Source of the DNA: Roseiarcus sp.
GTDB lineage: Bacteria; Pseudomonadota; Alphaproteobacteria; Rhizobiales; Beijerinckiaceae
Direction of reading: 5' to 3'
NCBI GenBank assembly: GCA_050015575.1
Contig: JBEKBD010000001.1
Location: forward strand, 5,441 to 69,440
DNA: 64,000 nt
Position 1 is the first letter of the stretch, and every line of letters begins with the position of its first letter. Both the position numbers and the translations under genes were made by a program. The notes below the pieces were generated by a model, which was given only the letters and a program-made list of their open reading frames with translations, was not told the DNA's origin and did no database searches. Positions 313 through 27,474 of this stretch are shown here, piece after piece.

Positions 313-504
313 GATCGAATCATCCCTGGGAGAGATTACCCCATAACGACAAAGCCGGGATTCGCCTAGAGCGCGCATGGCGAAAAGACAAGACCGGCCT
401 GTCGCGAAGACAGGCTTCCTCGCCAAGTCTACAGCGGCGGCCGGCGGCTGTGGAGAAAATTGTCGTGGCGCGGGGCGTCGGGCAAGCGACGGCGCTTGCG
501 GCCG

Positions 505-1134
505 TCAGCTCGGAGGCCGCCGCGATTCGACGATGCGCACGGATTCGGTGAAGGCGGCCTCGACGCTCATCGCGGTGGTGTCGAGCGGGACCGCGTCGGC
601 CGCGGCGCGCAACGGCGCCTCGGAGCGTTGCGAATCGCGGGCGTCGCGTTTGGCGATGTCGGCGAGGATGGCGGCGTAATCGGCTCGCTCGCCGCGCTCG
701 GCGAGCTCCCGCGCGCGCCGCCCCGCGCGCGCCTCGGGGCTGGCGGTGAGGAAAATCTTCACCTCCGCCTCGGGGCAGACCACCGAGCCGATGTCGCGGC
801 CGTCGAGAACGGCGCCGCCGGGCCGCCGGGCGAAATCGCGCTGCGCCGCCAGCAGCGCCGCGCGCACTTGCGGCATGGCGGCGACGATCGAGGCGGCCTC
901 GCCCATTTCGCGTCCGCGCAGCCGCGCCTCGTCGAATTCGGTCGAGTTCGCCGCGCGCGCGGCGGCGACGGCGGCCTCGACGTCGCGCAGGCCGCGGCCG
1001 GCGGCAAGAAGGCTCGCCGCGACGGCGCGGTAGAGCAGGCCGGTGTCGAGATGGGGCAGGCCGTAATGCTCGGCCAGCCGGCGCGCCAGCGTGCCCTTGC
1101 CCGACGCCGCGGGCCCGTCGATGGCGATGATCAT
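505..1134 (-). CDS. cmk: Cytidylate kinase
   Basis: [16 protein letters not shown]-loop, [24 protein letters not shown] motifs. Confidence 0.95.
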
Positions 1135-1323
1135 GCTTGCGCCCCAGCCCCTCTGCGTCGGTCGCCCCGCGGCGCTCATAAGACCCGACGGAGGCGCTGT
1201 CGAATCCGCTTCCCGCCCCCCGGCTCGCGTCGCCGCGAACGTCTTGGCGACCGGCGGGCGGCTGGGATAAAGTGGGCGGACCGGCAGCGACGAATGCGCG
1301 CGCCGGGTTCAGGGGGGACGACA

Positions 1324-2538
1324 ATGAATCTGACGGCGGCGCAAAGAAAGACGATCCTCGCCTCGTTTCTCGGATGGACGCTCGATGCGTTCGACTTCTT
1401 CTTACTGACCTTCCTCATCAGGGACATCGCCAAGGAGTTCGCCGTCGGGGTGCCGCAGGTCGCCTATGCGCTGTTCCTGACCCTGGCGATGCGCTTCGTC
1501 GGCGCCTTCATCTTCGGCCAGATCGGCGACAAGTGGGGCCGCAAGCCGGCGCTGATGCTCGACATCCTCTGCTATTCCGTGATCGGCGCGCTCGCCGCCT
1601 TCGCGCCGAGCCTGTGGGTGTTCTTGGCTCTGCGCGCGCTGTTCGGCGTGGCGATGGGCGGCGAATGGGGCCTCGGCAGTTCGCTGGCGATGGAGTCGAT
1701 TCCGCCGCAGGCGCGCGGCGTCGTCTCCGGCGTCCTGCAGTGCGGCTATCCCACCGGCTTCTTGCTCGCCTCGATCGCCTACGGCCTGCTCTACGGGCGC
1801 ACCTTCGGCGACTACACCGTCGGCTGGCGGGGCATGTTCCTGCTCAGCATATTGCCGGCGTTTCTCGTGCTGTTCATCCGCACCAGCGTGTCCGAATCGC
1901 CCGCCTTCGCCGAGGCGCAGAAGGTCGGCAAAGCGGGCCTGTGGAAGACGGTCGCCGACAACTGGGGACTGGCGCTCTACGCGGTCGTGCTGATGATGTG
2001 CTTCAATTTGTTCAGCCACGGCACGCAGGACCTCTACCCGACCTTCCTGCAGAAGCAGCATAATTTCGATCCGGCCACGGTGAGCTGGATCGCCATCGTC
2101 GCCAATCTCGGCGCCATCGCCGGCGGGCTGTTCTTCGGCGTCATCTCGGAGAAGATCGGCCGCGTCAACGCGATCACCATCGCGGCGGCGATCGCGCTTC
2201 CGGCGCTGCCGCTGTGGGCGTATTCGTCGACGCCCGTCATGCTGGCCGTCGGCGCCTTCGTCATGCAGGTCGGGGTGCAGGGCGCCTGGGGGGTGATCCC
2301 CGCGCATCTCAACGAATTGTCGCCCGGCGCGGTGCGCGCGACGCTGCCGGCGTTCGTCTATCAGGCCGGCAACTTCCTCGCCTCCTACAACGGCCCGTTC
2401 CAGGCCAAGCTCGCCGAGGACCACGGCGGCGATTACGCCTTTGCGCTGGCGCTGACGGCCGCCGTCGTCGCCGTCGCGCTGATCGTCGTCATCCGCTTCA
2501 GCCCGGAGCGGCGCGGCGAGACGCTGAAAGCGCATTGA
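1324..2538 (+). CDS. MFS transporter, sialate/carboxylate (NanT/Jen1-like)
   Basis: SFLGWTLDAFDFF, GQIGDKWGRKP, GVAMGGEWG, SHGTQDLYPTFL, WGVIPAHLNELSP. About 12 hydrophobic segments. ATG at 1324 after GGGGGAC. Confidence 0.85.
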   Translation: MNLTAAQRKTILASFLGWTLDAFDFFLLTFLIRDIAKEFAVGVPQVAYALFLTLAMRFVGAFIFGQIGDKWGRKPALMLDILCYSVIGALAAFAPSLWVFLALRALFGVAMGGEWGLGSSLAMESIPPQARGVVSGVLQCGYPTGFLLASIAYGLLYGRTFGDYTVGWRGMFLLSILPAFLVLFIRTSVSESPAFAEAQKVGKAGLWKTVADNWGLALYAVVLMMCFNLFSHGTQDLYPTFLQKQHNFDPATVSWIAIVANLGAIAGGLFFGVISEKIGRVNAITIAAAIALPALPLWAYSSTPVMLAVGAFVMQVGVQGAWGVIPAHLNELSPGAVRATLPAFVYQAGNFLASYNGPFQAKLAEDHGGDYAFALALTAAVVAVALIVVIRFSPERRGETLKAH

Positions 2539-2565: not shown

Positions 2566-2888
2566 GGTATTCACAAATCGTTGTCGGTCGGCAGCCACAT
2601 CGGCCCGCCGCCGTCAAGCCGCTGCGCGGCTGCTGCGCTACGCTTCGCCCGCTTCGCGGTGACCGCGCCGGTCCGATGCGGCGAGGCGCCTCCATGATCT
2701 TTGTTGAGCGGCCGGCCCGCAGGGCCGGCCGCTCAACAAAGATCATGGAAACCGACGGCCTGAGCCGCGCGCAGGAGTCAATGTTTGCGAGCGAAGCGAG
2801 CAACCCGCGAAGCGGGCGGGACATTGACGCCGAGCACGGATCAGGCACAGCGGACCCGGAAGGCGTCGAATGGCGAAGTGTGAATCCG
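2566..2888. repeat. Multi-hairpin palindromic element (REP/MITE-like or structured ncRNA) between convergent genes
   Basis: Perfect 28-bp stem 2691-2718/2722-2749 with GCA loop; 14-bp inverted repeat 2646-2659/2805-2818; several GCGAAGC mini-hairpins; terminal pairing 2569-2575/2879-2885. Confidence 0.7.
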
Positions 2889-2935: not shown

Positions 2936-4090
2936 TCAGTCCAGCCGCGCCACCACCGCGAGGCGCTTGACTTGCCCCTGCTGAAACGCGTGCAGGAACG
3001 CGTCGTAGTCTTTGAACGACACGCAGCCGTTGGAATCGCCGTTCGGGCCGAGCATATAGGAGTGCGCGAGCAGGCCCGCGCGTCCGTAGACGTCGCCGTC
3101 GCCGATCGGCGTGAGGCGCAGCGCCAGCACGCCGTGGAACGGCTCCTCGCGCGGCCCCAGTTCATAGAGGGCCGGCGGCGTCGCGCCGCGCATGCGTTCG
3201 TTGACGTAACGGGGATCGTCGAGCCGATCGCCCAGCCCCGAGTGCGCCTCCAGCCGCGTTCCATCGGGCAGATAGACCGTGCGCGCCGAGATGTCGTAGA
3301 CGGCGGTCCACTGGTCGTATCCCGGCGGCGGCGCCGAGCGGGCGAAGATCGAAAAGCCGGACGTGCGATCCGCCGCGGCGCCTCGCGCGCCGCTTTCCGG
3401 CGTTGCGGCGGCGACGGCGGCGCTGGACGGACGCCCGGTCGCGAACAGCCGCTGGAAGAGGTTGCGATCGTCGGCCGCGGGCGCGGGCGTTTCGGCGACC
3501 CGCGGCGCGCGGCGGTCGGGCTCGACGGCGGGCGTCAGCGAGGCGAATTCCGTGGGACGAGCCGGCGGCAGCGGCGCGGCGTCGTCGATCCGCGCGACGT
3601 CCCGCTTCGGCGGCAACGGGACGTCCGGCGGCGCCGGGATCGGCGCGGCGGCGGGCGGGGCGGCTTTTAGGCTCGCCAGCGCCGCCGGCTCGGCGCCCGG
3701 CGCGCCCGGCAGAAAGTCGGGGAAGAGATCGACCAGCCCGCCGTAGGGACTGGGGCCATTCTCCGCCGCGGCGACGGCCGGCGCGGCGTCGTCGAGGCTC
3801 GCCCGCAGGGGAAAGTCGGGACGCGGCGCGGCCGGCCCGGCGTCGGCGAGGAAATCGACCAACCCGCCGTAGGGATTGGCGAGCATTCTCTCTGCGATCG
3901 GCGCCGCCGCGGCGGGACGGAGCATGGCGAATTGCGGGGCGGCGGCCGGGCGCGCGTGCGCGACCCACGCCTCCATCCCCGCGCCGAAGGCCAGCGCGAC
4001 GCCCCAGGGAAGGAGCCACATCAGGCTTGGGCGAGGATCGCGCGCGCGGTCGAACGGGACTGGGTCGAATATCGGGTCGATTGCCTGCAT
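2936..4090 (-). CDS. DUF2778 (Tlde1-like L,D-transpeptidase-fold) protein with N-terminal membrane anchor and Pro/Ala-rich linker
   Basis: AVYDISARTVYLPDGTRLEAHSGLG, RMRGATPP, ALRLTP, LLAHSYMLGPNGDSNGCVSF C-terminal domain; hydrophobic LMWLLPWGVALAFGAG. Confidence 0.8.
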   Translation of the reverse strand: MQAIDPIFDPVPFDRARDPRPSLMWLLPWGVALAFGAGMEAWVAHARPAAAPQFAMLRPAAAAPIAERMLANPYGGLVDFLADAGPAAPRPDFPLRASLDDAAPAVAAAENGPSPYGGLVDLFPDFLPGAPGAEPAALASLKAAPPAAAPIPAPPDVPLPPKRDVARIDDAAPLPPARPTEFASLTPAVEPDRRAPRVAETPAPAADDRNLFQRLFATGRPSSAAVAAATPESGARGAAADRTSGFSIFARSAPPPGYDQWTAVYDISARTVYLPDGTRLEAHSGLGDRLDDPRYVNERMRGATPPALYELGPREEPFHGVLALRLTPIGDGDVYGRAGLLAHSYMLGPNGDSNGCVSFKDYDAFLHAFQQGQVKRLAVVARLD

Positions 4091-4142
4091 GCTTCGCCTA
4101 CGCACACGCCTCACAGAGGGGGGTGAGTTTGTAGGGAACACG

Positions 4143-4313: not shown

Positions 4314-6809
<2,496 letters not shown>

Positions 6810-27027: not shown

Positions 27028-27474
27028 TTAGGCGGCGATTTTGTAATTTGATGGATCGGACCCATCAATGATGATTGGGGGCGTCTCTGCACTCTGGATG
27101 CACCAGCCGGCCACCTCCTTGACGTCTGGAGTATCTGGAAGTTTCAGCGCCTGAATCGTATGCAGCCGAACAACCGTCTCCGCGTTCGCATCAATCGGGC
27201 ACTCTCCGCGCTCCCACCGGCTAACGGCCAGCGCCTCCCTGTGCAGCATGTCGGCTAGCTGAGCCTGCGTCATGCCCATTTCAGTCCGCAGGAACCGAAG
27301 CTCCTTGCCATTCATTGAGTTGCGGCGGGTGACAATCCCATGGGCGATGGCCTTATGCAGTCCGTTGATATTACGGATGATAATGCACTCTTCGCCGGCA
27401 TCATCCATCGGGAAGTCGACTCCCACAATGGTGACATTGTCGAGCCCGCTATCCGTATAACGGTAGTTGGTCAT
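27028..27474 (-). CDS. XRE HTH protein, putative MqsA-like antitoxin
   Basis: MTNYRYTDSGLDNV...INGLHKAIA...NGKELRFLRTEMGMTQAQLADML...VSRWERGE. Immediately downstream of the DUF4258 gene. Confidence 0.8.
   Translation of the reverse strand: MTNYRYTDSGLDNVTIVGVDFPMDDAGEECIIIRNINGLHKAIAHGIVTRRNSMNGKELRFLRTEMGMTQAQLADMLHREALAVSRWERGECPIDANAETVVRLHTIQALKLPDTPDVKEVAGWCIQSAETPPIIIDGSDPSNYKIAA

Follow-up and report, generated by a model that had tools for sequence, protein, structure and literature searches.

Probable Tn5-like miniature transposons of Roseiarcus with an unusually well kept three-hairpin core

Introduction

Bacterial MITEs (miniature transposable elements with inverted repeats), such as Correia/NEMIS, ERIC, RUP, MITEAba12 and the Coxiella QMITEs, are small, noncoding, multicopy and intergenic, with terminal repeats and a target duplication; they have a stable predicted fold, are present at a site in one genome and absent in another, nest with other repeats and are mobilised in trans by an insertion sequence (IS) that has the same ends (PMC10969869). 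Here we describe an element that shares these properties, trans-mobilisation being deduced in its case from sequence. It lies at positions 2562-2892 of a 64,000-nucleotide stretch of DNA (hereafter the window) from Roseiarcus sp. (Rhizobiales, Beijerinckiaceae; assembly GCA_050015575.1, contig JBEKBD010000001.1). Unlike the described MITEs, the window element is GC-rich rather than AT-rich, has ends of the Tn5-like IS4-family type and is targeted to the loops of palindromes. Its interior also sets it apart, as it is unrelated to the parent IS, forms a three-domain quasi-palindrome and is found within a second terminal-repeat frame as well.

Among autonomous elements, the closest described system is ISRm22, an IS4-family element of a member of the Rhizobiales, all copies of which are found in palindromic REP (repetitive extragenic palindromic) sequences, in many cases where two genes converge (PMC1525189). 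Target duplications of the ISRm22 type, which are palindromic and have GC ends, resemble the targets of Tn5 (Tobes & Pareja 2006, PMC1525189). ISRm22 is autonomous and the window element would be its non-autonomous analogue, a likeness that is drawn through the published description; homologues (74% and 40%) of the transposase proposed below as the partner of the window element are present in Sinorhizobium meliloti records, and one of them may be ISRm22. The REPINs, which are REP doublets associated with RAYT (REP-associated tyrosine transposase) genes, also have two inverted hairpin-bearing arms and are intergenic and multicopy. Unlike these, the window element has terminal repeats and target duplications and no linked RAYT gene, and the local RAYT-like genes carry other REPs. 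The RIME and BIME elements of Rhizobiales and enterobacteria (Rhizobium-specific intergenic and bacterial interspersed mosaic elements, respectively) are recombining mosaics of palindromic modules that are intergenic and lie at gene 3′ ends, and the likeness of the window element to these is one of description.

Results

The window element is very probably a decayed, 331-bp non-autonomous DNA transposon (a MITE), judging from sequence comparisons, and belongs to a family with Tn5-like IS4-family ends that is largely confined to Roseiarcus-type Alphaproteobacteria. The family has an 18-bp terminal inverted repeat (consensus CTACGGTATTCACACATC). In the window copy the left repeat is at 2562-2579 on the plus strand (CCAAGGTATTCACAAATC, with three mismatches to the consensus) and the right repeat is at 2875-2892 on the minus strand (plus strand GAAGTGTGAATCCGGTAG, reverse complement CTACCGGATTCACACTTC). 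The element is flanked by a direct repeat, the putative target-site duplication (CCCGCAAGGG at 2552-2561 and CCCGCAAGAC at 2893-2902, matching at 8 of 10 positions), and contains no open reading frame (ORF) with codon-usage support. An earlier reading of this DNA, made from the letters alone (the original prediction), had placed a symmetric multi-hairpin element at 2566-2888; the element itself is real, and its bounds are slightly wider than had been proposed. The ends were also said to pair, and positions 2559-2580 and 2874-2895 are indeed 73% complementary, the pairing being that of the terminal inverted repeats.

The genome from which the window is taken is a 3.0-Mb draft with 67% G+C in 178 contigs. 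It has six full copies of the element, of which the five besides the window's (79-86% identity) are on five other contigs, together with fragments. Copies were found in 15 of 37 sampled Roseiarcus genomes and were absent from the 24 further genera of this order in the sample. A scan with a conserved degenerate 23-nt motif, using one genome per species, revealed 83 stretches, nearly all of them in Roseiarcus or in alphaproteobacterial soil or peat metagenome-assembled genomes (MAGs), and within these an nhmmer profile search recognised approximately 70 near-complete copies. The one exact match to the motif in an archaeal genome, a Cenarchaeum sp. MAG (L078; OY843584.1:1184393-1184415) is absent from the listed nhmmer matches and is probably a chance match. 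The closest relative, a 5-contig long-read MAG (G068), has about 29 copies, and the genes that flank the locus in this genome are 96-98% identical to those of the window; its copies are only 72-91% identical to each other, which suggests that the family is old. The element is thus a repeat family, not a single copy, both in its own genome and in the relatives.

Outside this group, only single half-copies were detected, in chromosomes and plasmids of Bradyrhizobium, where they lie amid IS debris. The cultured strains Bradyrhizobium elkanii USDA 76 (plasmid pUSDA76, L205:2490-2652) and B. embrapense (L093:7130-7284) have one conserved half-copy each, consisting of the central hairpin and the right arm (described below) without the left arm or the Tn5-like ends, between transposase-gene fragments (HTH_32; weak rve). 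A DNA search of the plasmid database revealed the half-copies of the Bradyrhizobium plasmids and no named repeat. In Roseiarcus sp. SPRUCE 378, a gene-poor region of 3.5 kb (L128:1000-4500) has three copies in the same orientation, about 1 kb apart, which lie inside larger (~2-kb) segmental duplications. A recurrent hairpin, TGGATGGCCGGGACAAGCCCGGCCATGAC, often adjoins copies of the element (L128:3115-3157 and 4505-4547, and the left flanks in L112 and L058) and probably represents a further intergenic repeat family.

Of 76 copies, 22 have the conserved interior of the element (the core) enclosed by terminal inverted repeats at both ends, and 12 more have a repeat at one end only. In G068 the end sequence GGCTAnnnnATTCACACATC occurs 15 times on the plus strand and 15 times on the minus strand, compared with 0 occurrences of the reversed control, and most of these sites are paired, either approximately 337 bp apart (the family of the window element) or approximately 190 bp apart (a second family, whose interior differs). 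In many copies the CTA...TAG tips lie immediately next to direct repeats of 9-11 bp, and the target duplications of L034, L036 and L094 (9-10 bp) are perfect. Flanks that match at 8 or more of 9 positions were observed for 9 of 29 elements, where 1.1 were expected from non-cognate pairs (maximum of 4 in 200 permutations). The MITEs of the second family are about 190 bp long, with the same Tn5-like ends and an unrelated interior that contains CCCCTCACCCTGCCTCTCCCCGC...GCGGGGAGAGG hairpins; they were seen at L145:2065-2262 (G005, in the spacer orthologous to that of the window element) and, in the window's own genome, at C12:~27100-27290 and C67:9854-10041.

Autonomous ISs with identical 18-bp ends, each of about 1.5 kb, were identified at four loci (L177, L178, L179 and L189). 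Intact copies are present in two relatives. The IS in G089 (L179) is 1541 bp long, with identical 18-bp ends of the CTACGGTATGCACACATC type, an open frame of ~440 amino acids and a 10-bp duplication, and the IS in G102 (L178) is 1535 bp long, with CTACGGTATGCACACATC-type ends, a ~440-amino-acid open frame and a target duplication that lies in a palindrome. In G068 the same IS forms a unit of 2.47 kb bounded by these ends, with a gene for a protein of ~450 amino acids, the stop codon of which abuts the right end; the gene carries a single frameshift at a homopolymer run (the assembly is a nanopore one), and an IS5-family IS splits it close to its end. The partner transposase is a member of the IS4 family (NCBIfam NF033590, 289 bits with a cutoff of 160) and matches the Tn5 transposase in the PDB over its whole length (E=1e-18, residues 50-463). 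It contains the Y-2-R-3-E-6-K signature (YRRRWIIEQLFRLMK) and SDREGDIY, corresponding to the YREK and DREAD-like motifs shared with Tn5/IS50. The 19-bp ends of the partner IS presumably also have the CT tip of the Tn5 mosaic end and its inner ACACATCT. Unlike in Tn5/IS50, where the duplication is fixed at 9 bp, the duplications here appear to be of 9-11 bp and there is a strong preference for hairpin loops, and the two transposases are only distantly related.

More distant clades of the transposase (41-47% identity) have related ends (e.g. CTAGCGTGCGCACACATT and CTAAGGGATTCACACATT) and are likewise found in hairpin loops, and an intact IS on S. meliloti plasmids that is 74% identical has the ends of the partner IS, its duplication, of 11 bp, lying in a palindrome. 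There was no match to the partner transposase in the window's own genome, which together with the degraded ends indicates that the window copy is an immobile fossil.

Other transposase genes were considered as partners and rejected. An IS66-family gene between two of the end sequences (G068, L173) belongs to an IS that differs in its ends (GTAACTCCCAAG...), has an 8-bp target duplication (CGCGCGAC) and is nested in another MITE. This single-ORF IS (L173:762-2289) is inside a third small MITE, of ~150 bp, with the same Tn5-like ends, and its transposase gene is identical in L081. The IS110- and IS5-family ORFs in L172 are those of separate ISs nested at the same spot. The IS110-family IS (L172:~880-2020; Pfam DEDD_Tnp_IS110 and Transposase_20) is inside a second-family MITE that adjoins the Tn5-like IS, while the IS5-family (IS1031-like) IS (L172:3544-4486; ends GAGCCGATCCAAGAA, 3-bp TGA duplication) splits the Tn5-like transposase gene within its last codons. 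Within 4 kb, L172 of G068 has four mobile elements nested together.

The window element occupies most of a 397-bp spacer between two convergent genes, which end at 2538 and 2936. The upstream gene (460-2538, plus strand; start codon not fixed) encodes a major facilitator superfamily (MFS) transporter (Pfam MFS_1 and Sugar_tr) and the downstream gene (2936-4141, minus strand) encodes a Tlde1-domain protein (Pfam Tlde1_dom). A terminator-like hairpin (GGCCCTTG, loop TCCCG, CAAGGGCC) is present on the plus strand at 2543-2563, 3′ of the MFS stop codon, and its 3′ half is made up of the left target duplication and the first two bases of the element. In four related species (G020, G033, G085 and G025) the orthologous spacer is 35-78 bp long and lacks the element, providing the empty sites that the original prediction had suggested as a check. 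A second-family MITE, with the same ends and a different cargo, is found at the same point in G005, and a degenerate remnant in G029. The spacer of G068 has a copy of the family in the opposite orientation, at another insertion point and with its own flanks, which is 84% identical to the window copy; these differences indicate an independent insertion and exclude an in-situ inversion as the cause of its orientation.

The flanks of most copies form a hairpin of the CCCC...GGGG type, as do those of the autonomous ISs, which likewise lie in palindrome loops; this places the element within the loop of a palindrome of the terminator or REP-like type. With a crude home-made gene caller, 22 copies were assigned to convergent, 20 to tandem and 5 to divergent spacers, and the excess of convergent and tandem spacers over divergent ones fits insertion at the 3′ ends of genes. 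Only 2 of the 76 copies overlap an ORF, the other 74 being outside predicted genes.

The core is a conserved segment of 255 bp (window 2594-2847) consisting of a left arm, a central hairpin and a right arm. The left arm (2594-2682; helices 1-7) is a long interrupted stem, GCCACATCGG..GTCA / TGAC..CCGATGCGGC, recognised from the inverted repeat, the fold and covariation, which encloses mini-hairpins at 2617-2631, 2632-2638, 2642-2648 and 2649-2659. The central hairpin (2691-2749; helix 8) has 28-nt arms at 2691-2718 and 2722-2749 that are 100% complementary and a GCA loop, and no other match to its 28-mer was found in 100 shuffles. The right arm (2758-2846; helices 9-14) is an interrupted stem, GCCTGAGCCGCGC..GTCAATGT / ACATTGAC..GCACGGATCAGGC, that encloses the hairpins TTGC..GCAA (containing GCGAAGC) and CCCGCGAAGCGGG, and its 3′ strand, CTTGACGCCGAGCACGGATCAGGCA, is nearly invariant across the aligned copies. 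In reverse complement, the right arm is a diverged version of the left arm, which makes the core quasi-palindromic and explains why the nhmmer profile also matches on the opposite strand. The details of the original prediction agree with this anatomy. Besides the perfect central hairpin, all the features that it had listed are present, namely the GNA-loop mini-hairpins of the left arm at 2618-2630 (GCCGCTGCGCGGC), 2642-2648 (GCTTCGC) and 2649-2659 (CCGCTTCGCGG), which have GCA or GAA loops on the minus strand, those of the right arm on the plus strand at 2791-2797 (GCGAAGC) and 2804-2816 (CCCGCGAAGCGGG) within the stem GTCAATGT/ACATTGAC, and the mirrored motifs at 2612-2617 (CGTCAA) and 2824-2829 (TTGACG).

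The core is modular. Shorter elements, of ~165 bp, have the right arm alone between Tn5-like ends, and extra hairpins are present in some copies. The core is also found inside a second terminal-repeat frame (TCATACGGCTTCCGAGTGAAG... / ...CTTCACCCGGAAGCCGTATGA). It has no resemblance to the subterminal sequence inside the ends of the ISs, which indicates that the element is not an internal-deletion derivative.

Pairing in the core was assessed for a structure of 92 pairs on an alignment of 63 copies, using nhmmer profiles and direct pair counting. Standard pairs occupy 92.2% of the cells, compared with 30-41% when the partners are slid. Changes on both sides were observed in 55 of the 92 pairs, compared with 27 in shuffles (0 of 500 shuffles reached the observed number), and in 26 of the 28 pairs of the central hairpin, so the covariation that the original prediction had left to be looked for is strong. 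Paired columns diverge from the consensus by 11% and unpaired columns by 24%, which indicates that the fold is constrained. Of the changes private to a single copy, 37% preserve the pair, close to the neutral expectation of 31% (from the mutation spectrum of unpaired columns), whereas 55% of the changes shared by several copies do so. The constraint is thus mainly in the lineages that produce copies, and resident copies decay at an approximately neutral rate.

Discussion

If the window element is a MITE, as we consider very probable, a Tn5-like transposase supplied in trans would bind both of the 18-19-bp ends, excise the element and integrate it at a staggered cut, by analogy with Tn5/IS50. 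The non-autonomous, MITE-like nature put forward in the original prediction is supported by the multiple copies, the terminal inverted repeats, the target duplications, the empty orthologous sites and the autonomous partner with the same ends. Several observations weigh against this interpretation. The window's genome has no transposase with these ends, and the co-occurrence of IS and MITE is loose, as five genomes (G087, G025, G005, G020 and G029) have copies and no close IS in their assemblies. The duplication of the window copy matches at just 8 of 10 positions, and there are three mismatches in the left repeat of this copy; in the family the length of the duplication varies (9, 10 or 11 bp) and is hard to tell from palindromic targets, and the counts of gene contexts depend on crude gene calls. 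Recognisable Tn5-like ends are missing from 42 of the 76 copies, and some copies are in the TCATACGGCTTCCGAGTGAAG frame, from which it follows that the core may have had its own history or movement.

Other explanations of the hairpins were considered. The original prediction had favoured, as the agent of movement, an HUH enzyme (RAYT or IS200/605-type) acting at single-stranded hairpins beside TTGACG, the element being a REPIN-like REP doublet. The inverted arms, the GNA-loop mini-hairpins on the outward strands and the conserved CGTCAA/TTGACG at the arm bases are features that such a doublet would have, most of these genomes contain Y1_Tnp genes and one shortened arm-like copy in G029 is ~200 bp from a Y1_Tnp gene. 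This mechanism is nevertheless extremely improbable, as complete copies have DDE-type terminal repeats and 9-11-bp duplications, which are not made by HUH elements, and the partner is a DDE transposase. No core-like sequence is within 1.5 kb of eight Y1_Tnp genes, so the expected linkage did not materialise, and G005, where at least 9 matches to the element were recorded, lacks a Y1_Tnp gene. The repeat that flanks the Y1_Tnp genes is another one, ATTACGGTGACAG / CTGTCACCGTAAT, and is absent from the core. Inverted flanks of this kind were seen at RAYT-like Y1_Tnp genes in the window's own genome (L198, C35:9290-9574) and in G029 (L204:1315-2004); tandem GAATTAC units precede the ATTACGGTGACAG / CTGTCACCGTAAT repeats, and the window's own genome has 17 occurrences of CTGTCACCG. 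These repeats and the Y1_Tnp genes look like a separate REP/RAYT system. The second possibility raised in the original prediction was a structured noncoding RNA (ncRNA), in which case the 255-nt core would be a small RNA (sRNA) or a cis-acting 3′-end or terminator structure hitch-hiking in transposon ends, with the fold kept for its function as RNA. MITE-derived sRNAs are known (PMC10969869), and the strong covariation, a predicted fold of about -160 kcal/mol over 255 nt, the rate of evolution of paired columns (half that of unpaired ones) and the position of the element, in the place of a terminator hairpin between convergent genes, are all compatible with an RNA. In many copies, there is also a T-rich stretch after each arm, read inward (GTTTTG after the left arm). 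That linker is not conserved, however, being found after the left arm in some copies only and replaced by AGGCGCC in the window copy, and a promoter and terminator consensus scan of 2562-2892 revealed no promoter and no GC-rich hairpin directly followed by a T/U run. Nor do the mismatches have the strand signature of an RNA, as G.U is not preferred over A.C on either strand (plus-strand G.T and A.C mismatches are 13 and 40 in the left arm, 38 and 46 in the central hairpin and 20 and 17 in the right arm, 71 and 103 in total), and copies in tandem contexts, as judged from crude gene calls, lie in the direction of the flanking genes (11) about as often as against it (9). The Rfam scan of the element gave only sub-threshold miRNA and sRNA noise from the long hairpin (best match 36 bits, gathering score 197). 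Single copies show no sign of selection by the host, as their private mutations break pairs about as often as neutrality predicts. An RNA function is regarded as improbable.

It is also conceivable, though unlikely, that the core has no function, its hairpins being maintained by template switching at quasi-palindromes during replication or repair, in which one arm of a stem serves as the template for the other, so that a self-perpetuating BIME/RIME-like cluster of palindromes became trapped in the ends of an IS. Quasi-palindrome correction is an established mutational process, and it would be consistent with mismatch types that are symmetric on both strands, with a perfect 28-bp stem in an element whose terminal repeats and duplication have decayed, and with the modular variants (the right arm alone in ~165 bp, the central hairpin with the right arm in Bradyrhizobium, and the optional extra hairpins). 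However, most private changes (46 of 73) leave the pair broken, which indicates that correction, if it occurs, is not fast, and the copies continue to share long interrupted stems with conserved mismatches (e.g. A.C at core position 4/86).

The element is therefore still best read as a Tn5-like MITE, in most respects an ordinary one, in which the three-hairpin core is unusually well kept. The core fold would not serve the host as an RNA at each site; instead, the folded DNA (hairpins or a cruciform, on either strand) may help the element to spread, or repair templated by the palindromes may regenerate the hairpins. A speculative extension, to which we give a low probability, is that the 255-bp core is a selected functional module and that short Tn5-like elements depend for their spread on DNA folded into hairpins or a cruciform, which might unite the two ends or recreate a palindromic target or insulator. 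Such a role would explain both the passage of the core between at least two terminal-repeat frames and the compensatory pairing throughout the genus.

These results suggest that a conspicuous class of noncoding DNA in the genomes of Roseiarcus-type bacteria from peat and soil is transposon debris and not regulatory RNA, which should prevent its mis-annotation, and such repeats are likely breakpoints in short-read MAG assemblies, as in the genome studied here with its 178 contigs. They also point to a Tn5-like clade of the IS4 family in the Rhizobiales for which the loops of terminator or REP-like palindromes are the targets and which has given rise to several MITE families that differ in cargo. 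The unusual feature of the family is the compensatory preservation of its hairpins without the strand signature of an RNA, which raises the question of whether folded DNA aids short DDE transposons.

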